In this document: in pieces, positions 3,366 through 39,732 of the stretch | Numbering within the stretch: the first letter of the stretch is position 1 | How the letters are laid out: the number at the start of each line of letters is the position of its first letter | Source: Acidobacteriota bacterium | GTDB taxonomy: Bacteria; Acidobacteriota; UBA890; WLXD01 | NCBI GenBank assembly: GCA_029263295.1 | Contig: JAJCXT010000055.1 | Location: 17,085 to 81,084 of the forward strand | DNA length: 64,000 nt | Direction of reading: 5' to 3' | Made by a program: the position numbers and the translations under genes | The notes under the pieces: generated by a model | Databases searched by the model: none | What the model saw: the letters and a program-made list of their open reading frames with translations, nothing else | Told to the model about the DNA's origin: nothing

Positions 3366-6056
3366 ATGTACGAAAAATGCCCACCGAGGCTAGCTGAGCG
3401 CATGCTGCGCTGGGCTACCGCCCGCGCCGATCGCGACTGTGTCGCCGGCGACCTGGCCGAGGAGTTTGCCGTTCGCGCGCAACGCTCCGGCCCTGGTGGA
3501 GCGCGGCGCTGGTACTGGTGGCAGGTGATGCGATCGGTGCCGACGAATCTGCTAACAGGCCGTGAGGTCCAGGCAGCCAGACGCAGCGCGATCCAACTCG
3601 ATACCCCCCTCCGTCGAGGAGACGGCGCGATGAGCAACATGCTGCAGGACATCCGTTACGGCTTCCGGACGCTCGCCAAGAGCCCCACGTTCACTGTGTT
3701 GACCATCAGCACGCTGGCACTGGCCATGGGTGTGAACACGGCGATCTTCAGCATCCTGAATCTCATCCTGATCCAGGATCTTCCGCTCAGGGACACCGAC
3801 ACGCTGGGCTTTATCTACTCGACGAATGCTCAGCTCAACTCCTCGCAGGCGCCGGTGCCCGCAGCTGACTTCCTCGACTATCGAGAAGAGGTTGGCGCCT
3901 TCGGCGACCTCGCGGCGGTCGACCGTGGCGCGTCGTTCACGCTCACCGGCACCGAAGAGCCTGTCTGGATCGAGGGCTTCCTGGCGACAGCGAACACCCT
4001 CGACATCTGGGGCCAGGCGACGATCATGGGCCGGTGGTTCACTCCCGATGAGGACCGCGAAGGCGGTGAGCGCGTGGCCGTGCTCTCGCATGGGTCCTGG
4101 GAGCGACGTTTCGGGTTCGATCCCGACATCGTCGGCCGGGTGATCGACCTCGATGGCTATCCGACCACGCTCATCGGCGTGATGCCCAAGGAGATGGAGT
4201 TCGGCTCGCTGGCGGAAGCCGAGGTATGGGTGCCGGCACGGCTGAACCGCGCCAGTGCGAGCCGTGAAGATCGCACCCTCTGGGTCATAGGCCGCCTCGC
4301 ACCCGGCGCGACGCTCGCACAGGCTCAGCAGGAGGTTGACGCGGTGCGGCAGCGGATCATCGCCGAGGAGCCAGATCTACAGGGACCCTGGGGCGCGATC
4401 GTTTACGACATGAACCGCGCGCTCGCGCCGCCGGACACCTGGATGATCATGTTCATGCTCGGACTCACCGTGACGTTCGTCATGCTGATCGCCTGCTCCA
4501 ACGTGGCCACGATGATGCTGACCCGGGCCTCCGCCCGTTCGCGTGAGATCGCCGTGCGCGCCGCACTTGGTGCGCAGCGCCGCAGACTGCTCGGCCAGCT
4601 CCTCGGCGAGAGCGCCATCCTGTCGCTGGCCGCGGGACTCCTCGGCCTGCTGATCGCGCGCGCCTCGCTCATGGGTCTGATCTGGATGGCAGGCGAAAAC
4701 AGCGGCATGAACATCTTCGGGATGGTCACACTTGATACGACCGTTCTGCTCTTCACTCTCGGGGTCGCCCTCCTGTCGCCCATGCTCTTCGGTTTCATCC
4801 CGGCGCTGCGCGCGTCGCGACCGGACCTCAACGAGACCCTGCGCGAAGGCGCGCGCGGCAGCAGCGGCGGGCCTGGTGGCCTGCGTGGACGCCGCTTCCT
4901 AGTGGCCACCCAGGTCGCGCTGGCGCTGAGTCTCATGGTGGTCGCAGGCGTGCTAATGCAGGCCATGGCGAAGAACCGCAACTATGATCCCGGCTTCGAT
5001 GTCGACAACGTAATGACGATGCGTGTGGATCTCACCGAATCGGAGTATCCGAGCGGTGTGGATCAACTACAGAACTTCTCCCGCATCCGCGCCACCCTCG
5101 CGGCATTGCCCGGCATCGAGAGTGTCACCACCATGGGGTGGCGCCTGGGCGCCAACGACGACCCGATCGTCGCACGCAGCTTCCGCATTGTGGGACAGCC
5201 GGAACCCGATGCCGCCGAGCTCCCGTCGGGGTTCCTCAACGTGGTGAGCGCCGGCACCCTAGGGGTAATGCGGCTGCCACTTCTGAGCGGTCGCGACTTC
5301 ACGGAGAGCGACAACGCAGACTCAGCGCCCGTGGTGATCGTCAATGAACGGCTGGTGGAACGCTACTGGACCGGCCAAGCGCTCGGCAGCCACATCAAGC
5401 TAGGCACCGACGACCGCTCGTTCGAGGTGGTCGGTGTGATGAAGAACATTCACTCTGGAGATTCCAGCAACCCTGCGTTCCCGATCATCTTCGCGCCCCT
5501 GGCGCAGAATCCTCAGCGGCGGATGGGAGTGCTTGCTCGCACGTCTGGTGATCCGCTGGCGATGACCAGCGCCATCCGCGAGGCTATCTGGTCGGTCGAC
5601 GCGGATCAGCCGGTCGCCGACATGCGCACGGTGCATCAGTTGATCGAGGATGCTTTCGCGGCGCCCATGACCCTGTTCTCGATCTTCGTCGCCTTCGCCG
5701 GGTTCGCCGTGGCGATGTCTGCCGCGGGTATCTACGGTGTGATCTCGTACGCGGTGAGCGCGCGCACTCGTGAGATCGGGATTCGCATGGCGCTCGGCGC
5801 GCGTGCCACCGGCGTGCTGGCGATGATCACGCGCCAAGCAATGATGCTGGTCGGGCTCGGCATGGTCGTGGGTGGCGCGGCGGGCATCCTCCTGGGGCGC
5901 CTGCTCTCCAGCGCCATCCCGGATGTTGGCAGCTTCGACCTTCCCTCGTTTCTCGGGGTGCTGGCGGTATTCGCGGCAACGACCCTATTAGCCACCTGGA
6001 TCCCGGCACGGCGCGCCGCGCGCGTCCAACCGGTTACGGCACTACGCAGCGAGTAA
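3366..6056 (+). CDS. MacB/FtsX-type duplicated orphan permease (ADOP family) with N-terminal prefix domain (module 1)
   Basis: 896 aa. The cytoplasmic prefix 'PPRLAERMLRW...GDLAEEF...RWYWWQVMRSV' is followed by a TM helix and a MacB-like periplasmic domain. FtsX block 1 is 'IACSNVATMMLTRASARSREIAVRAALGA'. A second periplasmic domain and FtsX block 2 'ISYAVSARTREIGIRMALGA' follow. The C-terminus is 'PVTALRSE'. No ATPase is adjacent. Confidence 0.85.
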   Translation: MYEKCPPRLAERMLRWATARADRDCVAGDLAEEFAVRAQRSGPGGARRWYWWQVMRSVPTNLLTGREVQAARRSAIQLDTPLRRGDGAMSNMLQDIRYGFRTLAKSPTFTVLTISTLALAMGVNTAIFSILNLILIQDLPLRDTDTLGFIYSTNAQLNSSQAPVPAADFLDYREEVGAFGDLAAVDRGASFTLTGTEEPVWIEGFLATANTLDIWGQATIMGRWFTPDEDREGGERVAVLSHGSWERRFGFDPDIVGRVIDLDGYPTTLIGVMPKEMEFGSLAEAEVWVPARLNRASASREDRTLWVIGRLAPGATLAQAQQEVDAVRQRIIAEEPDLQGPWGAIVYDMNRALAPPDTWMIMFMLGLTVTFVMLIACSNVATMMLTRASARSREIAVRAALGAQRRRLLGQLLGESAILSLAAGLLGLLIARASLMGLIWMAGENSGMNIFGMVTLDTTVLLFTLGVALLSPMLFGFIPALRASRPDLNETLREGARGSSGGPGGLRGRRFLVATQVALALSLMVVAGVLMQAMAKNRNYDPGFDVDNVMTMRVDLTESEYPSGVDQLQNFSRIRATLAALPGIESVTTMGWRLGANDDPIVARSFRIVGQPEPDAAELPSGFLNVVSAGTLGVMRLPLLSGRDFTESDNADSAPVVIVNERLVERYWTGQALGSHIKLGTDDRSFEVVGVMKNIHSGDSSNPAFPIIFAPLAQNPQRRMGVLARTSGDPLAMTSAIREAIWSVDADQPVADMRTVHQLIEDAFAAPMTLFSIFVAFAGFAVAMSAAGIYGVISYAVSARTREIGIRMALGARATGVLAMITRQAMMLVGLGMVVGGAAGILLGRLLSSAIPDVGSFDLPSFLGVLAVFAATTLLATWIPARRAARVQPVTALRSE

Positions 6057-6076: not shown

Positions 6077-6403
6077 ATGAGTAAAGGAAACTACCTGGGC
6101 GAATTCGAGATCGTGGTGCTCTCGACCTTGCTGCACCTCGGTGAGAACGCTTACGGAATGACCATTCGCTGCGAGATCGACGAGCACACCGGTCGGTCGG
6201 TGTCGATCGGCGCGATCTACGCCACGTTGCGGCGGCTCGAACGCAAAGGACTGGTCGTCTCGCATCTCGGCGAACCGACCGCCGAGCGCGGTGGTCGTGC
6301 CAAGCGCTTCTTCGCTCTCGAGCCGGCCGGTGAAGACGCCGTCGCACGCTCACGCGCGATGTTCGCCCGTCTCTGGAACGACCTTCCTGAGGCGCGCGGC
6401 TAG
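6077..6403 (+). CDS. PadR-family transcriptional regulator (subtype A; module 1, downstream of its permease)
   Basis: 108 aa winged-HTH with 'LGENAYGMTIRCEI...IYATLRRLERKGLV...ERGGRAKRFFAL'. It starts 21 bp after the ADOP1 stop. Confidence 0.85.
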   Translation: MSKGNYLGEFEIVVLSTLLHLGENAYGMTIRCEIDEHTGRSVSIGAIYATLRRLERKGLVVSHLGEPTAERGGRAKRFFALEPAGEDAVARSRAMFARLWNDLPEARG

Positions 6404-9944: not shown

Positions 9945-10185
9945 GGGCAGGCTCCTGGACGGTGTCGGATGAGCGGAATCGATGGGCCGAGATCAATCCA
10001 CAGAAGGGGAGTCGGATATCAGTTCGAAGTATGCCAGATCGAACTGCCGCCAGACCGCGGCGCGGGAACCGCCGGACCGGCTGGCCAGTTCTGACCGCTG
10101 AGACTGATCGGCACGTTCGTCTACGTTCGTGATACTATATCCATATGTGGATATATCTAGCAGTGGGTAGAGCCGGGGTGCGGCT

Positions 10186-12861
10186 GTGAGCCCGGCAGCA
10201 CGCTGGTACGAGCGCATCCTGCGCTTGGGGCCGCGTTCGCTGCGTCGCGACTTCGGCGACGACATGGTGGCGGCATTCGACGCGATGCTCGCCGATGAGT
10301 GCGCCTCTGGGAATCCGCTACCGCGCCTGAGGGTGTGGTCGCGTGTCCTGACCGATCTGCTCGTGTCCAGCCTGAACAGCATCCGGGGCCAGTCCCCCGT
10401 GTATCGAATCCCCCGAAAGAGAACTCCCATGGAATCCCGTTTTCAGGACATTCGTTTCGCTCTGCGCACGATGCGAAGGCAGCCGCTGTTCGCCGTAGTC
10501 GCCATAGCAACGATCGCGATTGGCATCAGCGCTACCGCGACGATCTTCAGCATCGCCAACGGTCTGCTGCTTCGCGCCCCGACCGGCGTGCGCGAAAGTT
10601 CGGAACTGGTGAGCATTCACCGTGTGGCCCAGGACGAAACCGGTTTTCACTCCTTCGGACTACCCGCCTTTCGCCATCTGGCGAGCGCCGACAATGGCCT
10701 CACGAACATGGCGGCCTACGACAGCTTCGGCGGCAGCCTGGTAATCGACAGCACGCCCTATCGCGTTGCCGGCTCGATCGTATCCGCGAACTACTTCGAG
10801 ACGGTGGGCGTTCGCGCGGGCCTGGGGCGCTTCTTCTACCCCGAGGAAGACACCGTGCCCGGGCGCGACCTGGTCGCAGTGATCAGCGATCGTATGTGGC
10901 ACGAGCGCTACCGGGGGGACCCGGACATCATCGGCAGCGAGCTCGTTCTGAACGGCCGCGGGTTCGTGATTATCGGCGTGACCGAGCCTGAATTCATCGG
11001 CCACCTCGCAGCTTTCCTGAACGACGTCTGGGTCCCGTTGTCGGCTCAGGGTCTGATTCGCGGCGCGACAAACCTGTCCGAAGAAGAGGCTTCGGTCGGC
11101 CTGGAGATCGTGGCTCGTCTCGCGCCGGGGTCCAATGTGGAACTGGCCCAGGACGCCATCGACAGGGCGGGCAGCGCGTTTCATGAGCCTCGCGACGAGA
11201 AGTGGTTCGGGGCTGACGTGTACGCCTACGCGCCGATCGTGCCGATCGCACGGCAGGGGCTCAACCTGTTCCTGGCCGCCATGTTCGTGGTCGCCGGCGT
11301 GCTGCTCACCATCACCGCCGTCAACGTCGCGAACATGATGTTGTCGCGCGCCGCCGCCCGGTCGCGAGAGATCGGCGTTCGCTTGGCCCTGGGCGCCACC
11401 CGTGGCCGACTGGTCACGCAGTTGCTCACAGAGAGCGTGATTCTGTTCCTCTGCGGCGGTGTCCTCGGAACGCTCATCACGGTCTGGACAACCGGCCTGC
11501 TGGGGAGCCTCGCCCTGCCAATTCCGATCCCGATGGACCTGCATTTCGCGCCGGATTTTCGAGTCCTGGCGTTCGCGCTCACGATGGCGGCCACCACCGG
11601 CATCGCGTTCGGGTTGTCGCCCGCACTGCACGCCACGCGTGGTGACCTCACCGGCGCGCTCAAGGAGAACGGCACGCCACCACGGCGCCGTCAACGACTG
11701 CGCAGCGTTCTGGTAGTCACGCAGGTGGCCGGCTCCGCATTGCTGCTGGTCGTCGCGGGGTTGCTGATTCGCTCGGCCGGGCGCGTCACCTCACTCGACC
11801 TCGGGCTCGACACCAACGATGTCCACGCGTTCATGCTCGATACCCGCGAGGCGAATCGATCGCCGGACGAGAGTCGGCAGTTCTACGGAACCCTCCTGAA
11901 CGACGCGGCGAGCTTCTCAGGCGTCGACTCGATTGGTGCCATCGATGTCCCTCCGTTGACCGGCAGCAACCAGCAGAGCACGGTGATCCTGCCGGACATG
12001 CCGCCGGAGCCAGAGGTGGGCCTGCGCAAGGTGGAGTTCGCGCAGGTCTCCCCCAGCTACCTCGCCACAATGCGCATCCCGCTGGTGGCCGGCCGCCAGT
12101 TCAGCGACGCCGACACGGCCGACACGCCCAAGGTCGTCATCGTGAACGAGCATCTGGCGAATACCTTCTGGCCCGGTGAGAGCGCCGTCGGCAAGCGTTT
12201 CGCCTTCCGGGCAGCGAACGATCCGATCGACCTCGAGATCGTTGGGGTGGCCCGCGACAGCAAGATCCGAACGCCCGGCGATCAGGCCCGACCTCTGGTC
12301 TACGGCCACTGGGAGCAGTTCGGCGGCCGCGGGTACACGGTTGTGGCGCGCGTCGAGAGCCCGTCCGTGGCACTGATGATCCGCGACTACGTCAGCGAGA
12401 TCGACCCGGTACTGCCGCCGGCGCAGCCCATCGAGTACGCCGAACTAGTGGGCCTGTCATTGCTGCCGGCGAAGATCGCGACGATTCTCGCCACAGTGTT
12501 CGGCGCGGCGGGCCTGCTTCTCGTAGCACTGGGCCTCTACGGCCTTCTAGCCTATTCGGTAGCCCAGCGATCACACGAGATCGGCGTGCGTATGGCGCTG
12601 GGTGCTCACCAGTCCAGCGTGCGGAGCATGATCGTCGGCGACGGGCTCCGACTTACCGTGGTGGGACTCGGCATCGGTCTCCTGGCGGCCGCCGGCCTCG
12701 GCCAGCTCATTCGCTGGATGCTGTTCGGCCTGAGCCCATTCGACCCGGTCACATTCATCAGCATCGCCGTGCTGCTGTTGACCATCGCCGGCCTGGCCTG
12801 CTGGCTACCGGCGCGCCGCGCCGCGGCGACCAACCCCGTCAACGCATTGAGAGCAGAGTAA
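10186..12861 (+). CDS. MacB/FtsX-type duplicated orphan permease (ADOP family) with prefix domain (module 2)
   Basis: 891 aa with a GTG start. The prefix is 'ARWYERILRLGPRSLRRDFGDDMVAAF...LPRLRVWSRVLTDLL'. FtsX block 1 is 'NVANMMLSRAAARSREIGVRLALGA' and block 2 is 'YSVAQRSHEIGVRMALGA'. The C-terminus is 'PVNALRAE'. Confidence 0.85.
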   Translation: MSPAARWYERILRLGPRSLRRDFGDDMVAAFDAMLADECASGNPLPRLRVWSRVLTDLLVSSLNSIRGQSPVYRIPRKRTPMESRFQDIRFALRTMRRQPLFAVVAIATIAIGISATATIFSIANGLLLRAPTGVRESSELVSIHRVAQDETGFHSFGLPAFRHLASADNGLTNMAAYDSFGGSLVIDSTPYRVAGSIVSANYFETVGVRAGLGRFFYPEEDTVPGRDLVAVISDRMWHERYRGDPDIIGSELVLNGRGFVIIGVTEPEFIGHLAAFLNDVWVPLSAQGLIRGATNLSEEEASVGLEIVARLAPGSNVELAQDAIDRAGSAFHEPRDEKWFGADVYAYAPIVPIARQGLNLFLAAMFVVAGVLLTITAVNVANMMLSRAAARSREIGVRLALGATRGRLVTQLLTESVILFLCGGVLGTLITVWTTGLLGSLALPIPIPMDLHFAPDFRVLAFALTMAATTGIAFGLSPALHATRGDLTGALKENGTPPRRRQRLRSVLVVTQVAGSALLLVVAGLLIRSAGRVTSLDLGLDTNDVHAFMLDTREANRSPDESRQFYGTLLNDAASFSGVDSIGAIDVPPLTGSNQQSTVILPDMPPEPEVGLRKVEFAQVSPSYLATMRIPLVAGRQFSDADTADTPKVVIVNEHLANTFWPGESAVGKRFAFRAANDPIDLEIVGVARDSKIRTPGDQARPLVYGHWEQFGGRGYTVVARVESPSVALMIRDYVSEIDPVLPPAQPIEYAELVGLSLLPAKIATILATVFGAAGLLLVALGLYGLLAYSVAQRSHEIGVRMALGAHQSSVRSMIVGDGLRLTVVGLGIGLLAAAGLGQLIRWMLFGLSPFDPVTFISIAVLLLTIAGLACWLPARRAAATNPVNALRAE

Positions 12862-12866: not shown

Positions 12867-13175
12867 ATGAGCCAACCGTTGCGCCCGCTGGTGTTCCAGA
12901 TTCTCCTGATCCTCAACGAGGAGGAAACACACGGCTACGGAATCATGAAAGCCGTTAACGAACGCACAGGCCGTAAGACGATCCTGGGACCGGCCACGCT
13001 CTACCGCACGCTCGGACAGATGCGTGACCAGGGACTGATCGACGAGACCCCCACCGACGATGAGCGGCGCCGCGTCTACACGCTGAGCGAAGAAGGGCGC
13101 CGCATGGCCCGGGACGAGGCCGAGCGCATGGCGATGCTCGTGGAACGGGCGCGCGCCGGGCGGCTCCTTGGCTAG
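12867..13175 (+). CDS. PadR-family transcriptional regulator (subtype B; module 2, downstream of its permease)
   Basis: 102 aa with 'LVFQILLILNEEETHGYGIMKAVNERTG...LYRTLGQMRDQGLI...RRVYTLSEEG'. It lies 5 bp after the ADOP2 stop. Confidence 0.85.
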   Translation: MSQPLRPLVFQILLILNEEETHGYGIMKAVNERTGRKTILGPATLYRTLGQMRDQGLIDETPTDDERRRVYTLSEEGRRMARDEAERMAMLVERARAGRLLG

Positions 13176-17481: not shown

Positions 17482-17484
17482 TCC

Positions 17485-19483: not shown

Positions 19484-19510
19484 TAAACCCCCTCCGTATG
19501 GAGATAGACC

Positions 19511-30192: not shown

Positions 30193-30231
30193 CGTGGCTG
30201 ACGTCGAATCTGGCTCCAGCGAGGACAAGTA

Positions 30232-30606
30232 ATGAGCGGGACCGCATCAGAATCCGCGATTGGCGAACTCTTACCGTTGCACACGCGCGACTTTCACATC
30301 CTGCTGACATTGCTCGACGGCGACTGTCACGGCTACGGCCTGGTGAAGGCCATCGAGCGGCGCACCGCGGGCGAGCTGAGCCTCGATCCCGCCAATCTGT
30401 ATCGTGCCCTCCAACGGCTGAAGCAGAGCCGCCTGGTTCGCGACGCTGAAGCGCCGATCGCCGGCGAGGCCGATGGTCGCACGCGTCGTTATCACGGCAT
30501 CACCGATCTCGGCAGAACCACGCTCGAGGCAGAGGCTCAGCGCATGCGCCAGCTCGCCGACGCCGTGCAGGCCCGCGGCGCAGTGGCCTCGTCGGAGGAG
30601 TCGTGA
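30232..30606 (+). CDS. PadR-family transcriptional regulator (subtype B; module 4)
   Basis: 124 aa with 'FHILLTLLDGDCHGYGLVKAIERRTAGELSLDPANLYRALQRLKQSRLV'. Confidence 0.85.
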   Translation: MSGTASESAIGELLPLHTRDFHILLTLLDGDCHGYGLVKAIERRTAGELSLDPANLYRALQRLKQSRLVRDAEAPIAGEADGRTRRYHGITDLGRTTLEAEAQRMRQLADAVQARGAVASSEES

Positions 30607-33359
30607 GCCGCGCCGGCGAAGGCATAAGGGCCGCCACGAAGCCACACGAGTGGGAGCCGCCCCGAGTCGGTTTGCGCACGTACCGTGCTGCGTACGCACT
30701 CCTGATCCGCACGCTACCGCGTCCGCTGCGACGCGACTACAGCGACGACATGCTGCGACTCGCCGACGAGTTGTACCGCGACGCCTCCGGACGCGGCCGC
30801 CGCGCCGCATTGACGCTGGCCGCAACGTCGATCACGCGGCTGCTCAGTAGCGCAATCGGCGCACGCATCCATCAACTGCGGGCCCGATTCGGATCCCGCT
30901 CCTCGCTCCCCCGTAGTCCCCGCCACGGAGGCAGTCCCTTGCACGGCCTGCACCACGACATTCGACTCGGCCTGCGCGCGCTCATCCGAGAGCCCGGGTA
31001 CGCAGCCCTCGTGATCTTCACCCTGGCCCTGGCCATCAGCGTCAACAGCACGATGTTCTCGATGGTGCGGATCCTGCTATCGCCACCAGTACCGTTCGTC
31101 GACATCGACAGGTTGGTCTTCCCGTACTCGCGCAATCAGGAACTCAACCGACAACGTGCCGGCGTCTCGCTTCCCGACATGCTGGATCTCGAAACCGCGG
31201 TGCCGGCGGTCTCGGCGCTGGTCGGACAACGTCGCGAGCGCTTCCTCGTAGCCGGATCCGAGGAGCCCGCCCGAGTCGGCGGGGCGACCGTATCGACCAA
31301 CTACTTCGAGGTGCTCGGCATTCAGCTTGAAATGGGACGCGACTTCCTGCCGGAAGAGTCGACGCCGGGGCGAGGTCGGGTCCTGTTGATCACGCATGGC
31401 AGCTGGGAGCGCCGTTTCGGGGAAGACCCGCAGATCCTGGGCCGTGAGGTGTTCCTGGACGGCATCGCTCACACCGTGGTGGGAGTACTCTCAGAGGGTC
31501 TGGAGGCGGGGCCTTCCCGCGCCATCGAGTTGTACCGACCACTGGCGCACGACGAGGCCACGCTGCGGCGAGATCTTCGTGATCTCTCCGTCATCGGCCG
31601 GCTTGCCTCCGGCGCCTCGTTCGAGCAGGCCGATGAAGGGCTCCTCGCCGCATCTCGCCAGTTACAGAGCGCCCACCCGGACAGCAATTCCGCGTGGGAG
31701 GTTGTCACCCTGGGATTCCGCCAGGCAATGGTCGGGACCAACGCGACGATGGTGTTCTCGCTCATGAGCGGCGCGGTCTTCTTCGTGCTGCTGATCGCGT
31801 GCATCAACGTCGCCAACCTCACGCTGGCGCGGGCCACCGCCCGGCGTCGCGAGTTGACCGTGCGGGTCGCCCTCGGCGCGCGCCGCTGGCGTGTGGTTCG
31901 TCAGATTCTCATCGAGAGCACCCTGCTCGCGCTGTTCGCCGCAGGCGTCGGACTGCTGCTGACCCGCGTCACTTTCGACGGCCTCGTCGCCCTGACCCGT
32001 GGGCGTGTGGGCCTGCTTACCGAGATGAACATCGATGGCGGCATGCTGGTGTTCACGTTGCTGTTGTCGCTGGCCACACCGATCCTGTTCGCGCTCTGGC
32101 CCGCTCTCAAAGCCTCGGGGGGAGACTTGAGCACGGAGCTCAGGAGCGGCGGTCGCGGTGCCAGCTTCGGGCGCTCGGAGCGTAGGCGACGCGGCGTTCT
32201 GGTAGCCACACAGATGACCCTTGCGCTGACGCTGCTGATTCTGGCCAGCCTCACCTCCCGCAGCATGTACGAGCTGCTGAGTATCGATCTCGGTTTCGAT
32301 GCAACCGACCTGCTCACCTTCCAGATCGAGCTACCGGAAGCCAACTATCCTGGCCCCGAGGTGGTCGAAGAGTTCTTCGCGTCGGCACGCGACGAGATCG
32401 CCACGATTCCCGGCGTTCAAGACGTAGCGATCGTCAGTCACCGCCCGATCGTCGGCGGCGAGCCCTCGCTGCGCCTGGTAATCGAGGGCAAGTCTGAAGG
32501 GCGAGGCGGCGACAGCGCCATGGCCGCGGTCGTGGCGGCCGACACGGGCCTCTTCGACACGGTCGGCGTCGCACTGTCGCGCGGTCGAGGTTTCGACCCC
32601 CGCGACGACGCGACCGGCGTTCCAGTTGCGATCGTTAGCCAGGCGGCGGTGGAGCGCTACTGGCCAGAGGGGGATGTGCTCGGCAGCCGCATTCAGATTG
32701 GCGCCGACTCGACGGTGGCGTGGCGCCAGGTCGTCGGCGTGGTCTCCGATCTGCGCAACCCCGACGCCAACCTCCCTCCCGAGCCTCACGTCTACCTGCC
32801 GTTCGCGCAGGATCCGCGCCCGACGATGTCATTCCTGGTCAGGACATCCGGATCGATGGACCAGTTTGCGACTGTGGTTCGCGAGCGGGTTTGGCAGATC
32901 GATCCGCTGCAACCAATCGACGACTTCCGCACCATGCAACAAATCCGCCATGACGACCTCAGCGGTGACCTGGCCATGATCGGCCTGATCGCGCTGTTCG
33001 GAGTCGTCGCGTTCGGCCTCGCTGTCGCCGGGGTCTACGGCGTCGTCTCCTACTCGGTCAGCCAGCGGCGTCGCGAAATCGGCGTGCGCATGGCGGTCGG
33101 CGCGCGCAGCCAGGACGTGCTCGGCATGGTGACCGGACAGGGCCTGACCCATGTGCTGGCTGGCGTCGTGGTCGGCCTTGCCCTCGGGCTCGGGATGTCG
33201 CGCTTGATCGCCGGAACGCTCTACGGCGTCAGCGTTGTCGACCCGGTGACGTTCCTCGGGGTTCCGCTGATGCTGCTTGGCGTGAGTCTCGTCGCCTCTA
33301 TCATCCCGGCCCGACGCGCTGCGCGACTCGACCCGGTGGATACGCTCAGGGTGGAATAG
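30603..33359 (+). CDS. MacB/FtsX-type duplicated orphan permease (ADOP family) with prefix domain (module 4)
   Basis: The GTG start overlaps the PadR-4 stop (GTGA). The prefix is 'YRAAYALLIRTLPRPLRRDYSDDMLRLADELYRD'. FtsX block 1 is 'NVANLTLARATARRRELTVRVALGA' and block 2 is 'YSVSQRRREIGVRMAVGA'. The C-terminus is 'PVDTLRVE'. Confidence 0.85.
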   Translation: MSRAGEGIRAATKPHEWEPPRVGLRTYRAAYALLIRTLPRPLRRDYSDDMLRLADELYRDASGRGRRAALTLAATSITRLLSSAIGARIHQLRARFGSRSSLPRSPRHGGSPLHGLHHDIRLGLRALIREPGYAALVIFTLALAISVNSTMFSMVRILLSPPVPFVDIDRLVFPYSRNQELNRQRAGVSLPDMLDLETAVPAVSALVGQRRERFLVAGSEEPARVGGATVSTNYFEVLGIQLEMGRDFLPEESTPGRGRVLLITHGSWERRFGEDPQILGREVFLDGIAHTVVGVLSEGLEAGPSRAIELYRPLAHDEATLRRDLRDLSVIGRLASGASFEQADEGLLAASRQLQSAHPDSNSAWEVVTLGFRQAMVGTNATMVFSLMSGAVFFVLLIACINVANLTLARATARRRELTVRVALGARRWRVVRQILIESTLLALFAAGVGLLLTRVTFDGLVALTRGRVGLLTEMNIDGGMLVFTLLLSLATPILFALWPALKASGGDLSTELRSGGRGASFGRSERRRRGVLVATQMTLALTLLILASLTSRSMYELLSIDLGFDATDLLTFQIELPEANYPGPEVVEEFFASARDEIATIPGVQDVAIVSHRPIVGGEPSLRLVIEGKSEGRGGDSAMAAVVAADTGLFDTVGVALSRGRGFDPRDDATGVPVAIVSQAAVERYWPEGDVLGSRIQIGADSTVAWRQVVGVVSDLRNPDANLPPEPHVYLPFAQDPRPTMSFLVRTSGSMDQFATVVRERVWQIDPLQPIDDFRTMQQIRHDDLSGDLAMIGLIALFGVVAFGLAVAGVYGVVSYSVSQRRREIGVRMAVGARSQDVLGMVTGQGLTHVLAGVVVGLALGLGMSRLIAGTLYGVSVVDPVTFLGVPLMLLGVSLVASIIPARRAARLDPVDTLRVE

Positions 33360-33441: not shown

Positions 33442-33473
33442 CTCGTATACTAGATATATACCTAGTATACGAG
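33442..33473. promoter_or_regulatory. Inverted repeat CTCGTATACTAG-N8-CTAGTATACGAG upstream of PadR-5 (candidate operator)
   Basis: It has perfect 12-bp arms and an 'atatatac' spacer. It lies about 65 bp upstream of the PadR-5 ATG in an AT-rich island. Confidence 0.55.
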
Positions 33474-33536: not shown

Positions 33537-33845
33537 ATGAGCAAACTCCGAATGACCTTCACGACCGGCGTGGTCCTGCAGTCTATTTCCAGCGGCCATC
33601 GTTACGGCTTCGACATCATGGACGTGTCGGGACTGCCCGACGGCACCGTCTACCCTGCCCTGCGTCGCCTCGAGGACGCGGGCATGCTCGTGTCCGAGTG
33701 GGAGTCGGAGGAGGCGGCCGGCAAGCGGCCGCCTCGCTGCTACTACGGGCTGACCGCCGACGGCGAGGAAATGCTCGCCACCGCGCGCGCGAAGTTCAGA
33801 GGGCTCGCGGGAGCCATCGCCGACCCGGACGCGGGGGCCAGGTAA
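33537..33845 (+). CDS. PadR-family transcriptional regulator (subtype C; module 5)
   Basis: 102 aa with 'GVVLQSISSGHRYGFDIMDVSGLPDGTVYPALRRLEDAGMLVSEWE...RCYYGLTADGEEML'. Confidence 0.8.
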   Translation: MSKLRMTFTTGVVLQSISSGHRYGFDIMDVSGLPDGTVYPALRRLEDAGMLVSEWESEEAAGKRPPRCYYGLTADGEEMLATARAKFRGLAGAIADPDAGAR

Positions 33846-36569
33846 GTGGGAACGTCAAATACCTTCCGTCCGGAATCTAAACTCGCGCCGAGCACCGGTA
33901 TCGCCTTGCGCGCGGGTCTCCTGGTCGTCCGCGCCGCGTCGTGGGTAGCGCCGGCCCGGGAACGCGATCGCTTTCACCGACAGTGGTGCGGCGAGCTGAG
34001 CTTCGCGGCTGAGCGCTCGACGACCTCCGGCCAAGCACTCCTGCGCCGCTCCCTCCTGGCGCTTCGTGATGCGGTCACTCTGCGCACCCGCCGAGCCCGG
34101 GGCGAGGGCCCCGCCGGCGCCACGCCTCCTGGCGGCCCCCGACCGCGGCTGCTGGAAGAATTCCTGCAGGATCTGCGCTTTGGTTTCCGCTCACTGCGGA
34201 AATCACCCGGGTTCACCGCCGTCGCGATCATGACCACCGCGCTGGGCATCGGCGCAACGACGACCATCTTCAGTCTCGTCGATGGCATCCTGCTCAAGCC
34301 GCTGCCCTACCCGGACCCCGAGCACCTGGTTGTGGTGTGGCCCGAGATGCACTTCTCCAGCGCGTTGATCGACCGCGTCGAACCGAGCCTCGAGGCCTAT
34401 GACGCGTTCTCCGGCTACGGCGACAGCTGGGAGTACACGTGGCTGAGGGACGATGGTGCCGAACGCCTGCGCGGGCCGATCGCCACGGCCGGGTTCTTCG
34501 ACGTCCTCGGAGTACCGATGACGCTCGGCCGCGGGTTCCAGGCCGGCGACGACGCTCCCGGGGCAACGAACGTTGTCCTGAGCGAACGCTTCTGGCGTGA
34601 GCGTCTCGAGGCCAGCCCCGATGTCATCGGCACTGCAATGCGAATCAACGGCCAGGAGCACGTCGTCGTTGGGGTCGGCGGACCGTCGATGAGTGCCTTC
34701 CATCCCGATGCCGACATCGTGATGCCATGGATACTCGATGCGGCGGCGCCGTCGTATCGATCGCAGGATCTGAAGCTCATCGCGCGACTGCGCGCCGGCG
34801 TCGGACCCGAGGCTGCGCTAGCCGAGTTGCGCGTCTTCATCGACGGGCTGAAAACCGAGTTCGAGTTGCCCGTCGACTTCGGCGACGACGCCGAGATCAT
34901 GCCGCTGCAGACCTACCTGGTGGGTGACAGCCGCCCGATGCTGCTACTGCTGTTCGGCGCCGTCGGCCTGACCTTGCTGATCGCCAGCGCCAACGTAGCC
35001 AACCTGTTGCTCGCGCGGGCCCTCGCACGACAGCGTGAGATCGCGGTCCGCGTCGCGCTCGGAGCCCGTGGCGGCAGGCTGGCGAGACAGATCCTCACCG
35101 AGACCTCGCTGCTCGGTTTGCTCGGTGCGATTCCGGGGGTCCTGCTCGCGGTCTTCGGGCTCAGCGTCGTGCTGTCGTTGTTGCCCGCAGACACACCGCG
35201 CCTCGCCAGCGTGGCCATCGACGGCACTGCCCTCGCTTTCTCGATCGGCATCGCCCTGCTCACCGGCTGCGCCGTGGGTGTTATTCCCGCCATCCAGGCG
35301 GCGCGCTCCGACGTGCGCGACACGCTGACCTCGGGCGGGCGTAGTGGCAGCGACAGCGCCGGGCGACAGCGCCTGCGCCGCCTCGTGGTCCTGTCCGAAA
35401 TCGCCCTGGCTGTCACGCTGGTCGCCGCCGCCGGACTCCTCGTCAAGAGTTTCCTGCGGGTCACGGACGTCGACCCTGGATTCCAGCCGGACGGACTGGT
35501 GACCTTCAACATCGACCCTGCCCGGGAGACGCTGGGTTCCGCGTCCGAGGCGCGCCAGTATTACGCGCGCCTGCGGGAGCGGCTCGACGCTCTTCCGGGA
35601 GTCGGCGAGACCTCCTCGGTCTGGAAGGTGGCCTTCAGTGAGGATGGCGGGCTCAACGGTCTGCGGCGCGCGGACAAGCCGCTGAACCCCGACGACCGGG
35701 GTGAACTCGTCCGCTGGCGTCCAGTCGCTAACAACTACTTCGCTACAGCCGGACTCCGCCTGCGGCGCGGACGCCTCTTCGCGTCGGACGACGAGGGCGG
35801 CGAACCGGTTACGGTGATCTCGCAGGCAATGACCGACGTCCTCTTCCCCGGCGAAGACCCCATCGGCCATCAGATCTTGACCACCATGGAACGAGAAGTT
35901 CCGCTGCGCATCATCGGCGTCGTGGAAGACCTGAAACTAGCCGGCCTCGATCGCGCTGGTCCGGCGGTCGCCTATCGGCCCTACGCGCAAGTTGACGAGA
36001 TCATGACGGAATACGGGATGTTCTATCGGCGCTGGATCGTCCTGCGCACGGCCGGCTCACCGGCACCCGGGATCGCTGCGACGATCCGCAACGCCGTGCG
36101 CGAGGAGGACCCCACCGCACTGTTTGCAGACTACGTCGCGATGCCTACCGCCATCAGCAACTCGCTGGCGGCGAGGCGAGCCACCATGACCCTCCTGACG
36201 GTGTTCGCCCTCTCGGCGGTCACCCTTGGCGCCATCGGCATCTATGGCGTGATGGCCTATGCGGTACGGCAACGTGCGCGGGAGATCAGCATCCGCGTGG
36301 CGCTCGGAGCGACGCAGCGACGAGTCATCCGCGATGTGATCAGCGATTCGCTCAAGGTCGCCCTCGGCGGCACTGCCCTCGGTCTTGTCCTGACTCTCGG
36401 CGCGGCGCAGTGGGTGCGAGAGTTCCTGTTCGAGGTCGACGCGTTCGATCCCGTCGTACTCGCAGCGGCGGCCGGGTCCGCGATGCTTGTCGCGGTGACG
36501 GCTTCGTTGCTGCCGGCATGGCGAGCCGCACAGGCGGATCCGGCAACGACCCTCGGAAGCGACGAGTAG
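33846..36569 (+). CDS. MacB/FtsX-type duplicated orphan permease (ADOP family) with prefix domain (module 5)
   Basis: The GTG start directly abuts the PadR-5 TAA. The prefix is 'ALRAGLLVVRAASWVAPARERDRFHRQWCGELSFAAE'. FtsX block 1 is 'NVANLLLARALARQREIAVRVALGA' and block 2 is 'YAVRQRAREISIRVALGA'. The C-terminus is 'PATTLGSDE'. Confidence 0.85.
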   Translation: MGTSNTFRPESKLAPSTGIALRAGLLVVRAASWVAPARERDRFHRQWCGELSFAAERSTTSGQALLRRSLLALRDAVTLRTRRARGEGPAGATPPGGPRPRLLEEFLQDLRFGFRSLRKSPGFTAVAIMTTALGIGATTTIFSLVDGILLKPLPYPDPEHLVVVWPEMHFSSALIDRVEPSLEAYDAFSGYGDSWEYTWLRDDGAERLRGPIATAGFFDVLGVPMTLGRGFQAGDDAPGATNVVLSERFWRERLEASPDVIGTAMRINGQEHVVVGVGGPSMSAFHPDADIVMPWILDAAAPSYRSQDLKLIARLRAGVGPEAALAELRVFIDGLKTEFELPVDFGDDAEIMPLQTYLVGDSRPMLLLLFGAVGLTLLIASANVANLLLARALARQREIAVRVALGARGGRLARQILTETSLLGLLGAIPGVLLAVFGLSVVLSLLPADTPRLASVAIDGTALAFSIGIALLTGCAVGVIPAIQAARSDVRDTLTSGGRSGSDSAGRQRLRRLVVLSEIALAVTLVAAAGLLVKSFLRVTDVDPGFQPDGLVTFNIDPARETLGSASEARQYYARLRERLDALPGVGETSSVWKVAFSEDGGLNGLRRADKPLNPDDRGELVRWRPVANNYFATAGLRLRRGRLFASDDEGGEPVTVISQAMTDVLFPGEDPIGHQILTTMEREVPLRIIGVVEDLKLAGLDRAGPAVAYRPYAQVDEIMTEYGMFYRRWIVLRTAGSPAPGIAATIRNAVREEDPTALFADYVAMPTAISNSLAARRATMTLLTVFALSAVTLGAIGIYGVMAYAVRQRAREISIRVALGATQRRVIRDVISDSLKVALGGTALGLVLTLGAAQWVREFLFEVDAFDPVVLAAAAGSAMLVAVTASLLPAWRAAQADPATTLGSDE

Positions 36570-36615: not shown

Positions 36616-36646
36616 TGTAAATCGAATATATTCACTTTGATTTACA
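36616..36646. promoter_or_regulatory. Nested dyad: TGTAAATC-N15-GATTTACA enclosing the perfect 10-bp palindrome GAATATATTC, upstream of PadR-6
   Basis: 'tgtaaatcgaatatattcactttgatttaca' ends 16 bp before the GTG start at 36662. The RBS AGGAG is at 36651-36655. Confidence 0.55.
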
Positions 36647-36661: not shown

Positions 36662-37006
36662 GTGTCTGAACCGCAAGATTTGATTCCGCTTCGACCCGTT
36701 GACCTACAAATCCTGCTCGTGCTTGCCAACGCCAACCTGCATGGTTACGGCGTGATGAAGGCCGTTCGGGAAGAGTCGGGCGGCCGGGTCGGCCTCGAAG
36801 TCGGGTCGCTCTACCGCGTCATCAACCGCCTGCTGGACAGCGACCTGATCGAGCAGGTCGCGCCGGCAGCCGGCAGCGATGACCCGCGACGCAAACACGA
36901 CTACGCCATCACCGAACTCGGCCGTGCCACGGTTCGCGCCGAGAGCGAGCGCCTCGCCCAGGTGTTGGCCACCGCGCGCGCACGCGACCTGGCTGGCCGA
37001 GCGTGA
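36662..37006 (+). CDS. PadR-family transcriptional regulator (subtype B; module 6)
   Basis: 114 aa with 'VDLQILLVLANANLHGYGVMKAVREESGGRVGLEVGSLYRVINRLLDSDLI'. Confidence 0.85.
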   Translation: MSEPQDLIPLRPVDLQILLVLANANLHGYGVMKAVREESGGRVGLEVGSLYRVINRLLDSDLIEQVAPAAGSDDPRRKHDYAITELGRATVRAESERLAQVLATARARDLAGRA

Positions 37007-39732
37007 GCGACCTCCGCGTTCCCGGACTGACGCTCGCCGCGCACCTGCTGCGATCGGCTACGCTCGCGTACCCTCTCGCCTTTCGCCGCCGCTTCGCGTC
37101 CGAGATGCAGTGCGCGTTCCAGGAGCGCTGCTCGGACGCTTGGAGGGACCGCGGCAGCCGAGGACTAGCGGCGGCCGTGAGCCGCACGATTCTCGATGTC
37201 CTCCGCGCCGGATTGGGCGAACGACTCGAACACCGCCGTACCGCTCCCGCACCTGGCCCCCACCTCCGCCCCGATCCCCCAGATCGTGTGCCCATGTTCA
37301 GCTCGACTCTGCAAGACATCCGTTTCGCAGCCCGTCTGTTGCGCAAGAACCCCGGATTCACTCTGGTGGCTGTGCTCACGTTGGCCCTCGGCATCGGCGC
37401 GAACACCGCCATCTTCACGCTCGTCGACTCGCTCCTCGGCCGCCCGCTGCCCGGCATCGAGGACTCGGACAGCCTGTTCGCCCTCTACACCGCGGACAGC
37501 GGCGGCTCGCCTGGCGTCTCGTCGATCGTCGATTTCCGTGACTTCGAGGAACAACTCGACACTGTGTCCGGCGTCGCCGCCTACAAGCCACGCGGAGCCA
37601 ACGTCAGCAACGGCGGCGTGACCGAGCAATTGTCGAGCATGATGGTCACGGGCAGCTACTTCGAGGTGCTTGGTGTCGCTGCAGTCCTCGGCCGAACGAT
37701 CGGGCTGGAGGACGACATCGAGCCCGACGGCCACCCCGTAGGGCTGATCTCGTATGGCCTGTGGCAGCGACGCTTCGCCGGCGATCCGGATGCCGTAGGC
37801 AGCGAGCTTCGAGTCAACGGTCGCGCGTTCACGATCATCGGCGTCACCCCACGAGGCTTCCGAGGAACCTGGCTGGAAAGCGGACCCGACCTATTCGTCC
37901 CCATGGCAATGCAGCCAACCATGATGCCGGGTAACGGCAACCTTCTGGAGCGGCGAGGCTGGGGCGGAGTCCTGGTGCTCGGACGCAGGGCCGAGGGACA
38001 GAGCGTGGAAGCCGTCCGGGCCGAGATCGAGACCGTCGGCGCCTGGCTGCGGACGACGTTTCGTGTGGCCCAGGGACGCGACTATCAGGTCGTATCGTTC
38101 GCCGAGGGAACCATGGCCCCACAGGCGCGAACGATGGTGGTTCAGCTCAGCGCGTTGTTGTTCATCGTGGCCGGATTGGTCCTCCTGATCGCCTGTGTGA
38201 ACGTAGCGAATCTGCTACTGGCGCGAGCCGCCAGACGGACTCGCGAAATCGCGGTGCGCCAGGCACTCGGAGCTGGCCGCCGACGGATCGTCAATCAACT
38301 GATGGCCGAGAGCCTGCTGTTGAGCGGACTCGGAGGCGTCGTCGGCATAGGCGTTGGCGCCTTCCTGGCGCGCGCTGTCGGCCAGCTCCCTGTCGGCCTC
38401 ACGATGGCGACGGGCATCGACCAGCGCGCTCTGCTCTTCTGTGCGGGAGTGACTCTCCTCACCGGGCTGGCTTTCGGGCTCGTTCCGGCTCGCCGCGCCG
38501 CCCAGATCGACGTCAACAGCCGCTTGCGCGATGGCGGGCAGAACGTCTCGGCCCGCGGCGGGCTCTCGAGCGGCCTGGTCGTTGTGCAGGTGGCGATCTC
38601 TGTCGTGCTGCTGGTCACCGCGGGTCTGTTTGTGCGGACCCTCGCCAACCTGAGTCGTCTGGACCTCGGCTTCGACCCTGCTGTGGCGACCGTTGGCACG
38701 GACCCCGGCCTGCAGGGCTATTCGACTGCCGAGACGGCACAGTTCTACGCAGCGGCCCGGGAGCGGCTGGCCGCGCTGCCAGGTGTGCAGCGCGTCAGCT
38801 ACGTCAACGCGCTACCGGGCCCGGAGAACGACGGCGAGGACACCTTCTCGATCGACGGCTACGCCCCTGCCGACGGCAACCCCGTCGCGCTCTTCAGCCT
38901 CGTCGGGCCTGACTACTTCGAGCTACTCCGCATCCCGATCGTGGAGGGTCGGGGCCTGCTCGTCACGGACACAGAAGGCACTCAGGGCGTGGTAGTGATC
39001 AACCAGGCTGGCGCCGACCGACTCGAGCAACTCACCGGTCGGCCCGGGCTAGGCGCCCGCCTCAGTGTCTTCGGCAGCCCGTGGGTCGAGGTTGTCGGCG
39101 TGGTCGCTAACAGCGTGACCAGCGGTGTCGCCGACGCCCCCCGCACCACACTGTATGTGCCCCAGCAGCAGCTGGCCTCCACACCATTCGCTTCGCGAAT
39201 GACGCTGCTAGTACGAGCTGACGGCGAGCCGGCCACCATGGTCGAGGAGGTGCGGAACGTCGTGCGCTCAATCGACCCCGCGTTGCCCGTCTTCAACGTT
39301 GGCACGCTGGAAACACGGATGGCGAGCGCGCTCGCCCAGGAACGCCTCACCGCCGTGGCCATAGGCGCCGCCGCCCTTTTGGCACTGGCGCTGGCGCTCG
39401 TCGGCCTGTACGGAATCCTCGCCTATACCGTGAGTCGCCGGGCAGCGGAACTCGGAGTCCGTATGGCCCTCGGCGCCGACGCCTCGCACCTCGTACGGAT
39501 GGTGCTCCGGCAAGCCTCTGCTTTGGTCGTGCTGGGCCTGGTGTTCGGGTTAGCCGGCGCGGCCGCGCTTGCTGGGCTGGTGGAGGGCTTCCTGTTCGAT
39601 GTCGCGGCCCTCGACGTGGCCACCTACGTCGGAGTCCTGGCACTGATGTTCGCCGTCAGCCTGGCTGCCGCATGGGTACCCGCGCGGCGCGCCACGAGCC
39701 TGGACCCGGTACGCGCACTCCGCAGCGAGTAA
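37003..39732 (+). CDS. MacB/FtsX-type duplicated orphan permease (ADOP family) with prefix domain (module 6)
   Basis: The GTG start overlaps the PadR-6 stop (GTGA). The prefix is 'LTLAAHLLRSATLAYPLAFRRRFASEMQCAFQERCSD'. FtsX block 1 is 'NVANLLLARAARRTREIAVRQALGA' and block 2 is 'YTVSRRAAELGVRMALGA'. The C-terminus is 'PVRALRSE'. Confidence 0.85.
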   Translation: MSDLRVPGLTLAAHLLRSATLAYPLAFRRRFASEMQCAFQERCSDAWRDRGSRGLAAAVSRTILDVLRAGLGERLEHRRTAPAPGPHLRPDPPDRVPMFSSTLQDIRFAARLLRKNPGFTLVAVLTLALGIGANTAIFTLVDSLLGRPLPGIEDSDSLFALYTADSGGSPGVSSIVDFRDFEEQLDTVSGVAAYKPRGANVSNGGVTEQLSSMMVTGSYFEVLGVAAVLGRTIGLEDDIEPDGHPVGLISYGLWQRRFAGDPDAVGSELRVNGRAFTIIGVTPRGFRGTWLESGPDLFVPMAMQPTMMPGNGNLLERRGWGGVLVLGRRAEGQSVEAVRAEIETVGAWLRTTFRVAQGRDYQVVSFAEGTMAPQARTMVVQLSALLFIVAGLVLLIACVNVANLLLARAARRTREIAVRQALGAGRRRIVNQLMAESLLLSGLGGVVGIGVGAFLARAVGQLPVGLTMATGIDQRALLFCAGVTLLTGLAFGLVPARRAAQIDVNSRLRDGGQNVSARGGLSSGLVVVQVAISVVLLVTAGLFVRTLANLSRLDLGFDPAVATVGTDPGLQGYSTAETAQFYAAARERLAALPGVQRVSYVNALPGPENDGEDTFSIDGYAPADGNPVALFSLVGPDYFELLRIPIVEGRGLLVTDTEGTQGVVVINQAGADRLEQLTGRPGLGARLSVFGSPWVEVVGVVANSVTSGVADAPRTTLYVPQQQLASTPFASRMTLLVRADGEPATMVEEVRNVVRSIDPALPVFNVGTLETRMASALAQERLTAVAIGAAALLALALALVGLYGILAYTVSRRAAELGVRMALGADASHLVRMVLRQASALVVLGLVFGLAGAAALAGLVEGFLFDVAALDVATYVGVLALMFAVSLAAAWVPARRATSLDPVRALRSE

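Follow-up and report, generated by a model that had tools for sequence, protein, structure and literature searches.

What drives a MacB-type permease to which no ATPase is fused and beside which none is encoded, and why is a regulator gene found next to it instead? This question is raised by a 64-kb stretch of DNA with 65% G+C (the window) from an Acidobacteriota bacterium (assembly GCA_029263295.1, contig JAJCXT010000055.1, positions 17,085 to 81,084 of the forward strand). Six modules, each made of one large permease gene and one gene for a PadR-type regulator, are spread over the 36.4-kb span examined here. The permeases (A1 to A6, numbered like their modules and their PadR partners R1 to R6) belong to the ADOP family. 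We know of no experimental work on ADOP permeases, which to our knowledge are among the most expanded gene families of soil Acidobacteriota and their relatives. An earlier note, made from the letters of the window alone, had recognised the modules and had drawn attention to the N-terminal prefix that each permease carries where MacB has its ATPase domain. On balance, we favour the reading that each module is a self-regulated two-gene unit for envelope sensing or resistance, with a permease that would borrow its ATPase from elsewhere in the genome and a prefix that would serve the PadR regulator.

Architecture of the six modules

All six permeases match the full 803-position NCBIfam model TIGR03434 ('ADOP family duplicated permease') with 763–848 bits against a curated cutoff of 622.3 (E-values 1e-229 to 1e-255), and the matches run from model positions 1–3 to 800–803. 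They are encoded on the + strand and have lengths of 891–918 amino acids (aa). A Pfam scan revealed two MacB_PCD (PF12704) and two FtsX (PF02687) stretches in each of them, with 85–116 residues preceding the permease core, and it found no ABC_tran domain (PF00005) in A1–A6, that is, no fused ATPase domain. In these points the earlier note was right, including the one on which it had staked its interpretation, the lack of an ATPase domain inside the permeases. The C-terminal 'ALR.E' that it had listed as a common mark is indeed present in all six, but it is the generic C-terminus of the FtsX family.

With pairwise identities of 30–38% the six paralogues are old duplicates, as had been proposed. 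A recent origin as tandem copies was rejected because of these low identities and because modules 1 and 2 are each kept in L081, an orthologous locus from an 'Acidobacteria bacterium' metagenome-assembled genome (MAG) with about 70% protein identity (a second orthologous locus, L082, has 80%). Together the modules take up about 18.3 kb of the 36.4-kb span, which corresponds to about 50% and not to the 40% first estimated. Their density, which had been thought unusual, is ordinary for the family: 7–8 ADOP genes lie in 22 kb at other loci (L012, L030), and a 42-kb stretch of Psychroflexus torquis contains ten (PMC3914696).

The six small open reading frames (ORFs) beside the permease genes pass the Pfam PadR model (PF03551) with 42–56 bits against a gathering cutoff of 27. 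Four of them (R3–R6) are located upstream and two (R1 and R2) downstream of their own permease, in the arrangement already described. R1 and R2 follow after gaps of 20 and 5 nucleotides (nt), respectively. Stop and start codons overlap as GTGA in R4/A4 and R6/A6, where the permeases begin with GTG, and R5 and A5 abut directly. For A3, the true start is likely the in-frame GTG at 19846, which would give a GTGA overlap with the R3 stop. The permease-then-PadR order of module 1 is kept in L081 and L082. The regulators had also been assigned to the companion model TIGR03433 (acidobacterial PadR paralogue family), and this assignment has to be withdrawn: R1–R6 reach 31.3–59.1 bits against a cutoff of 101.8, compared with 155–164 bits for control PadRs from type 1 modules of other genomes. 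R5 has no close relative among the PadRs that were sampled.

The prefixes fall into types that we label T1 (NF038403, perm_prefix_1), T2 (NF038404, perm_prefix_2) and T3, a type for which there is no Pfam or NCBIfam model. NF038404 (cutoff 35 bits) is matched by A1 with 52.6 bits for the whole protein and 57.2 bits for the prefix alone, and by A3 with 38.5 and 43.3 bits; the prefixes of A2, A4, A5 and A6 match neither this model nor any other of Pfam or NCBIfam, even at E≤10. None of the A1–A6 prefixes matches NF038403 (cutoff 30 bits), on which control T1 prefixes (L027, L061) score 70–72 bits. In the classic pairing seen elsewhere, NF038403 prefixes accompany the PadRs with 155–164 bits on TIGR03433. 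In the window, T2 is thus found in modules 1 and 3 and T3 in modules 2, 4 and 6, T1 is absent, and module 5 has a divergent prefix, which matches none of our local T1, T2 and T3 hidden Markov models (HMMs). The T3 consensus reads R.YRLLLRL.PRALRREFGDDM..F..M..DAR..G....LRVW.R.L.DL; the local T3 HMM gives 112 bits for A2, 74 for A4 and 80 for A6, all three being seed sequences of that model. Conserved motifs are GDLAEE and WYW in T2 and RxxFGxxM in T3.

That the prefixes could be artefacts of taking the longest ORF was considered and rejected for T2 and T3, as both domains are conserved at the protein level in about 30 homologues each. Several of the public A1 orthologues (P0003–P0005, P0007 and P0008, with 70–88% identity) are annotated with only 804–808 aa and start at an internal Met, the equivalent of residue 89 in A1. 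Since the prefix lost in this way is conserved in about 30 homologues, these annotations suggest that public gene calls misplace the start site systematically. A word-indexed search with the T2 prefix profile returned short fragments only (109 sequences of 50–126 aa).

Linkage and co-variation of prefix and PadR

For a comparative scan, one genome per species was searched with the six-paralogue alignment as query, which resulted in 80 loci, mostly from Acidobacteriota MAGs and some from Gemmatimonadota and Verrucomicrobiota. ORFs were called in these loci and searched with HMMs built from the window proteins, yielding 173 full-length ADOPs outside the window. Their N-termini are bimodal: in 138 proteins the core is preceded by fewer than 60 residues, mostly 0–10, and in 35 by at least 60, mostly 70–140, with a few over-extended ORFs among the latter. 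An adjacent PadR gene on the same strand was found for 20 of the 35 prefix-bearing ADOPs but for none of the 138 prefix-less ones (Fisher p=4e-17). Of the 15 prefix-bearing exceptions, most either stand second or third among the permeases of an operon that begins with a PadR gene (L027, L029, L038, L077) or are ORFs over-extended into the gene upstream.

Prefix and PadR also vary together. Across 26 PadR/ADOP modules, the similarity of the PadRs follows that of the prefixes (Mantel r=0.83, p≤2e-4; partial r=0.82 when controlling for the core), whereas the correlation with the similarity of the permease cores is r=0.37. The same pattern is seen within the window. R1 is closest to R3 (47% identity), and both modules carry T2 prefixes; R2, R4 and R6 cluster at 36–42% identity (R2–R6 42%, R2–R4 36%), and all of them are linked to T3. 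The permease core nearest to that of A1 is the A4 core, although R1 pairs with R3 and R4 with R6.

The Mantel signal rests on three blocks, and therefore an independent replicate was sought with the T3 prefix, using a 70-position profile in an exhaustive search of 1.84 billion cluster representatives. The profile matched 10,835 representatives at E≤1e-3 and 2,459 at E≤1e-10. Among the best matches were full-length ADOPs as well as other architectures. A recurrent class of about 190 aa consists of the prefix followed by a few transmembrane (TM) helices (P0251–P0318 are membrane proteins of this size), and the prefix is also located on multi-TM proteins of 270–480 aa, in fusion with Clp_N repeats (P0262, P0338) and in fusion with a Ser/Thr kinase (P0270). 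In all five cases in which the locus of a non-ADOP T3-prefix protein was looked up (L083–L087), a PadR gene is located immediately upstream, usually overlapping the start codon; in L083 the upstream ORF is cut and was identified as a PadR. These PadRs are up to 51% identical to R2 (the value for the PadR adjoining the T3-prefix/Clp_N protein in L084) and up to 41% identical to R6, and they thus belong to the same clade as the T3-linked PadRs of the window.

Because T3 is found on a kinase, on Clp_N proteins and on membrane proteins, with a PadR gene upstream in all five loci looked up, the prefix can best be regarded as a portable PadR-partner domain and not as a part of the transporter. T3 itself seems to represent an extensive family of adaptors for PadR, which neither Pfam nor NCBIfam covers. 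The proposal that the prefix stands in for the missing ATPase is thus better replaced: linkage, co-variation and the T3 fusions all point to a signalling domain that partners PadR.

These results also bear on a simpler explanation, in which PadR would bind an inducer directly, as LmrR does for lmrCD, and the prefix would have another role, for instance in assembling the permease, targeting it to the membrane or autoinhibiting it. Control of efflux pumps by PadR repressors is common, and the nearest solved structures of R2 are LmrR-type PadRs of about 110 aa (3F8B and relatives). A repressor that senses its ligand unaided would, however, leave three observations unexplained: that PadR genes adjoin prefix-bearing ADOPs only (20/35 against 0/138), that PadR clades track the type of prefix and not the permease core, and that the same PadR clade is found beside T3 on kinases, Clp_N proteins and small membrane proteins. 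We consider this explanation quite improbable.

Coupling helices and the source of energy

An AlphaFold2 model of A1, calculated from a 50-sequence alignment (mean predicted local distance difference test score, pLDDT, 85; predicted template modelling score, pTM, 0.73), consists of the prefix, an elbow helix, eight TM helices, two periplasmic domains and short helices after TM4 and TM8. The prefix is modelled as three helices (residues 8–17, 23–41 and 43–77) with a pLDDT of about 90, and residues 73–84 form a disordered linker. The two short cytoplasmic helices (392–400 and 801–809) are placed where type VII transporters have their coupling helices, and they bear the invariant motifs REIAVR.ALGA and EIGIRMALGA. 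As modelled, A1 fits the type VII (MacB-type) fold, with an FtsX-type four-helix TM fold, a periplasmic Porter/Sabre domain and a cytoplasmic coupling helix between TM2 and TM3. The best solved match in a Foldseek search was YbbP of E. coli (9GE6, 1.7e-17), MacB was found with 1.8e-14, and LolCDE, HrtB and BceB (of BceAB) were further matches. ABC ATPases, either separate or fused, power all of these solved relatives. YbbAP has one coupling helix between TM2/3 and another between TM8/9, and one YbbA subunit docks to each of them (PMC12646458).

The window ORFs contain a single ABC ATPase (phmmer), which is of the MacB/LolD type and is encoded at 14338–15024. As the earlier note had stated, it does not adjoin a module and is part of a separate operon with two FtsX permeases. 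This operon on the - strand encodes a metallo-beta-lactamase (MBL)-fold protein, a LolA_like protein, two single FtsX/MacB_PCD permeases, the ATPase and a 384-aa protein. The ATPase might be the shared motor of the six ADOPs plus its two cognate permeases, since it is of the right type, lies at a distance of 1.2 kb from where module 2 ends, and keeps this adjacency in L081. Its gene is convergent to module 2, though, and embedded in a complete operon; the protein is more LolD/DevA-like and reaches only 194 bits on the model of DarD, compared with 237–265 bits for the ATPases inside ADOP arrays. For these reasons it is a weak candidate for the motor of the six ADOPs, and we judge a shared motor of this kind to be very unlikely.

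The 384-aa ORF of this operon (13182–14336, - strand) abuts the ATPase gene and is matched by neither Pfam nor NCBIfam. In L081 the same position (17185–18339) is occupied by an ORF of equal length, likewise without a Pfam hit, and the protein is a conserved, uncharacterised member of the LolA_like/FtsX/FtsX/ATPase operon.

ATPase genes are found next to ADOP genes at other loci. Arrays of prefix-less ADOPs reach eight genes in 22 kb, and in 10 of 25 such arrays an ABC ATPase gene abuts a permease gene, with several arrays carrying two different ATPase genes. For the six array ATPases that were scanned, the best models were all DarD, MacB, LolD, FtsE or YbbA, so that these ATPases are of type VII. 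Counted per permease, an abutting ATPase gene was found for 1 of the 35 prefix-bearing and for 20 of the 138 prefix-less ADOPs. ATPase genes also occur together with PadR-linked permeases: in L027 an ATPase gene overlaps with a PadR gene, behind which two prefix-bearing ADOPs follow (an ATPase-PadR-ADOP string), and in L038 an ATPase gene follows 179 bp after the second ADOP. Judged from gene order, the family splits into prefix-less permeases in arrays with MacB-type ATPase genes and prefix-bearing permeases that are wired to a private PadR.

In the arrays L002 (8495–9915), L006 (12578–15790), L015, L028, L030 and L027, two distinct MacB/DarD-type ATPase genes are often present. One of the paired proteins has about 237–263 aa and is 40–44% identical to the window ATPase, the other has about 220–236 aa and is 31–37% identical to it. 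A heterodimeric ATPase pair that serves an asymmetric duplicated permease and is common to many paralogues would fit these observations.

We compared the elements that dock the ATPase in 26 PadR-linked and 58 ATPase-linked ADOPs, taking the mean frequency of the top residue as measure. Both classes have the same consensus: REIAVR.ALGA, HEIGIRMALGA and, at the C-terminus, PARRA..VDP..ALRYE. Conservation is 0.75 in the PadR-linked and 0.78 in the ATPase-linked proteins for the coupling region of the N-half, 0.67 and 0.72 for that of the C-half and 0.72 and 0.79 for the C-terminal motif, against a whole-protein mean of 0.52–0.54. It is thus probable, on the grounds of ATPase genes in ADOP arrays, common gene strings and conserved docking elements, that the six permeases draw on MacB-type ATPase subunits whose genes lie elsewhere in the genome. 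The term 'ATPase-less' used in the earlier note holds for these six operons but misleads for the family, given the 10 arrays with an abutting ATPase gene, the string in L027 and the equally conserved coupling helices, and the puzzle of an ATPase-less machine is weakened by the split of the family.

The same data allow us to weigh an alternative in which the module is an ATP-independent transmembrane sensor and the prefix has replaced the ATPase. A ligand at the periplasmic domains would move the FtsX helices, and the prefix would relay this movement to PadR; the permease would be a receptor and not a transporter, with the MacB-type fold run in reverse to release PadR. Such a sensor would account for the lack of an abutting ATPase gene in the six operons and for its rarity beside PadR-type permeases elsewhere (1/35 against 20/138 for prefix-less ones). 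It would also suit the location of the prefix, which occupies the exact position of MacB's ATPase domain, and the presence of the same prefix on plain multi-TM, sensor-like proteins without transporter features. We nevertheless regard it as unlikely, because in the coupling helices, as in the C-terminal helix, the consensus and the above-average conservation of ATPase-linked ADOPs are retained, because L027 and L038 have ATPase genes in gene strings of the PadR/prefix type and because all solved relatives are ATP-driven. If it were true, signalling would be free of phosphorylation and use a whole ABC permease as antenna, with six insulated channels in this window, and T3 would be an adaptor family of more than 10,000 clusters that joins many kinds of sensors to PadR.

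In the self-regulated unit with a borrowed ATPase, which we prefer, a PadR dimer would repress its own operon by binding to a private AT-rich palindrome in the module promoter. The permease would be the membrane part of a type VII (MacB/LolCDE/YbbP-like) ABC mechanotransmission machine, and the substrate of its two periplasmic domains and eight TM helices would most likely be a lipophilic or peptide-like compound on the periplasmic face of the inner membrane. The cytoplasmic three-helix prefix would act as a PadR-partner adaptor, analogous to the HAAS domain. Once the permease is engaged, the prefix would capture or reconfigure PadR, and the operon would be derepressed and the module induced. 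Six diverged modules with six operators would in this way form six insulated channels. The work cycle would probably be driven by MacB-type ATPases encoded elsewhere, which might be shared between paralogues; ATP-free running is unlikely.

Several points weigh against this scheme. The phmmer search of all window ORFs found no ATPase gene in any of the six operons, and the one ATPase of the window belongs to an operon with its own two permeases and matches LolD/DevA best, whereas the array ATPases match DarD. The conservation of the coupling helices could reflect a constraint of folding and not the docking of an ATPase. Three prefix/PadR types dominate the Mantel signal, which thus reflects few independent events, and the LmrR-type PadRs, which are the nearest solved relatives, are drug-binding repressors that sense ligands unaided. 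The domain architecture, the strict linkage and co-variation of prefix and PadR, the operator-like palindromes with their conservation and the conserved docking helices are observed; the physical contact between prefix and PadR is one that we infer, as are the direction of signalling, the class of substrate and the identity of the ATPase. A Pfam scan of the six prefixes at E≤10 gave no hits, thus none to the HAAS-related models DUF1700, DUF1129 and DUF1048, so that membership in HAAS is not demonstrable by sequence. Profile-profile links among the prefix types are moderate: hhalign gave P=8e-5 for T2 against T3 and P=0.002 for T1 against T3, and the link between T1 and T2 is not significant (P=0.076; reversed-sequence controls ≥0.086). 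When the T3 prefix was modelled alone with AlphaFold2, the helix pattern was the same but of low confidence (pLDDT 66, pTM 0.38), too low for comparing folds, and a profile search of the PDB with the T3 alignment returned chance-level matches only (E≥0.41).

Candidate operators, neighbouring genes and known systems

Only 8 places in the 64 kb reach at least 70% A+T over 30 nt, and 6 of these are the six module promoters. Each promoter has a different inverted repeat (Table 1); the palindromes are clear at modules 2, 4, 5 and 6 and shorter and weaker at modules 1 and 3. At module 4, a sigma-70-like hexamer pair (30166–30195) overlaps the palindromes. In modules 1 and 2 the PadR gene comes last, and the palindrome is nonetheless located in front of the permease gene, as an autoregulated operon would require. 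Both boxes of module 1 are kept in L081 and L082, with diverged DNA between them, and the palindrome arms of module 2 are kept in L081, where the spacer varies and the surrounding intergenic DNA has diverged. A TTTTTC..GAAAC box seems to be common to modules 1 and 3, the PadRs of which are 47% identical. A different operator for each paralogue would result in insulated regulation, and the palindromes are ready operator candidates for experiments.

Table 1. Positions of the permease genes, PadR genes and promoter or operator-like elements of the six modules in the window
Feature	Position	Strand	Details
Module 1 promoter/operator region	3320-3365	+	TTTTTCGAAAC box 3324-3334; TATATC 3353-3358, 7 nt before ATG
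Module 1 inverted repeat			TTTCGAAA
ADOP permease A1, T2 prefix (perm_prefix_2)	3366-6056	+	896 aa; TIGR03434 814 bits
PadR R1, 3' of A1	6077-6403	+	108 aa; Pfam PadR 42 bits; TIGR03433 33.5 bits
Module 2 operator-like palindrome	10136-10155		TATATCCA-N4-TGGATATA
ADOP permease A2, T3 prefix	10186-12861	+	891 aa; TIGR03434 763 bits
PadR R2, 3' of A2	12867-13175	+	102 aa; Pfam PadR 55.6 bits
Module 3 AT-rich promoter/operator region	19453-19493		TTCTTG-N3-CAAGAA at 19469-19483
PadR R3, 5' of A3	19511-19849	+	112 aa; Pfam PadR 43 bits
ADOP permease A3, T2 prefix	19807-22542	+	longest ORF 911 aa; TIGR03434 848 bits
Module 4 operator-like palindromes	30158-30192		TATGTCT-N2-AGACATA and perfect 22-mer ATATATGATCGCGATCATATAT
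PadR R4, 5' of A4	30232-30606	+	124 aa; Pfam PadR 50 bits; T3-type PadR clade
ADOP permease A4, T3 prefix	30603-33359	+	918 aa; TIGR03434 796 bits
Module 5 operator-like palindrome	33442-33473		CTCGTATACTAG-N8-CTAGTATACGAG
PadR R5, 5' of A5, outlier of the six	33537-33845	+	102 aa; Pfam PadR 46 bits
ADOP permease A5, divergent unclassified prefix	33846-36569	+	907 aa; TIGR03434 779 bits
Module 6 operator-like palindrome	36616-36646		TGTAAATC-N15-GATTTACA
PadR R6, 5' of A6	36662-37006	+	114 aa; Pfam PadR 48 bits; T3-type PadR clade
ADOP permease A6, T3 prefix	37003-39732	+	909 aa; TIGR03434 800 bits

A TATAT(C/T) box 7 nt before the ATG of module 1 is conserved in all three orthologues (window, L081 and L082). 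In L081 and L082 it stands immediately before position 10001. Since it ends this close to the start codon, it suggests that the permease gene of module 1 may be transcribed as a leaderless mRNA.

A seventh AT-rich spot (39818–39874) with the near-palindrome ATATGTAACTAATAAGTTACA lies in front of the gene for an ArsR/HTH_20-type regulator (ORF 39789–40205), the real start of which is probably near 39858. Behind this gene follows one for an AHSA1/SRPBCC-family protein (ORF 40096–40752), and the two resemble a further small autoregulated pair without relation to the ADOP modules. Upstream of module 1, the ORF 243–3308 (+ strand), which ends 57 nt before A1, encodes a Ser/Thr protein kinase; the protein has about 1,000 aa and PD40/TolB-like beta-propeller repeats at its C-terminus. 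This neighbour is also kept in L081 (6959–9937). Between and beside the modules we found genes for an MBL-fold protein (18358–19635, - strand), a serine beta-lactamase-family protein (23092–24561, + strand), a DUF3500 protein (24581–25738, - strand) and a tricorn-like S41 peptidase (41307–44603, - strand). Such envelope- and hydrolase-type neighbours are compatible with a cell-envelope or xenobiotic theme.

Several elements of this picture have been described previously: the ADOP family and its PadR partner, two catalogued prefix domains, paralogue clusters and the HAAS-PadR idea, including fusions to FtsX/MacB_PCD. The classic ADOP/TIGR03433/NF038403 modules of Acidobacterium capsulatum, 'Candidatus Solibacter' and Psychroflexus torquis likewise consist of a PadR and a prefix-bearing TIGR03434 permease, and they also occur as many paralogues in clusters (PMC3914696). 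The window differs from them in the lack of type 1 prefixes, in PadRs that stay below the TIGR03433 cutoff and in two modules with the permease gene first. Our analysis adds non-classic types of prefix and PadR, among them the widespread and unmodelled T3 with its many fusion partners, and quantitative support for a unit of PadR and prefix that does not depend on the permease. It further adds candidate operators, two of which are conserved in orthologues, and the split of the family into PadR-wired modules and ATPase-carrying arrays.

Like YbbP in YbbAP-TesA (9GE6–9GE8; PMC12646458), the ADOP permease has the form of an internally duplicated, single-chain pseudo-dimer, in which two MacB-type periplasmic domains are combined with a pair of coupling helices. 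YbbP has 10 TM helices, including a linking pair, and an adjacent ATPase gene, whereas the ADOP model has 8 TM helices, a prefix and no ATPase gene in its operon; the sequence identity between the two is 13%. The darobactin exporter DarB/DarD provides a further link, since DarD is the best match of the ATPases in ADOP arrays. In LmrR-LmrCD of Lactococcus lactis, too, an ABC exporter operon is under a PadR repressor; LmrR has about 110 aa and is by sequence the closest homologue with a solved structure. LmrR differs in that it senses drugs directly, and its transporter has no PadR-partner domain.

The HAAS-PadR pair consists of a three-helix domain on varied membrane-bound and soluble sensors, FtsX/MacB_PCD proteins included, which is always encoded beside a stand-alone PadR (PMC11237479); its authors (Ravi, Aravind and co-workers, mSystems 2024) proposed the pair as an alternative to histidine kinase and response regulator (PMC11237479). 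The A1 prefix likewise has three alpha-helices in succession, with the same pattern at low confidence for T3, a PadR gene stands beside the gene of the prefix-bearing permease in 6 of 6 window modules, and T3 has a similar range of fusion partners. The likeness lies in architecture and gene context, and homology is unproven.

In the BceAB-BceRS systems of Firmicutes, which sense antimicrobial peptides, an FtsX-type ABC permease is the sensor and signals its activity to a transcription system, by which the transporter is induced, and many insulated paralogous modules are present in one genome, a situation similar to that proposed here. These systems use a histidine kinase and a response regulator, a 10-TM permease with one extracellular domain and a cognate ATPase gene, whereas the output of the window modules would be a PadR repressor that is addressed through the fused prefix. 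If the signalling reading is right, the PadR-linked ADOP modules would represent a widespread non-phosphorylating counterpart of the Bce-type systems. By analogy, the closest functional parallel would thus be the Bce-type 'transporter as sensor', with PadR in the place of kinase and regulator.

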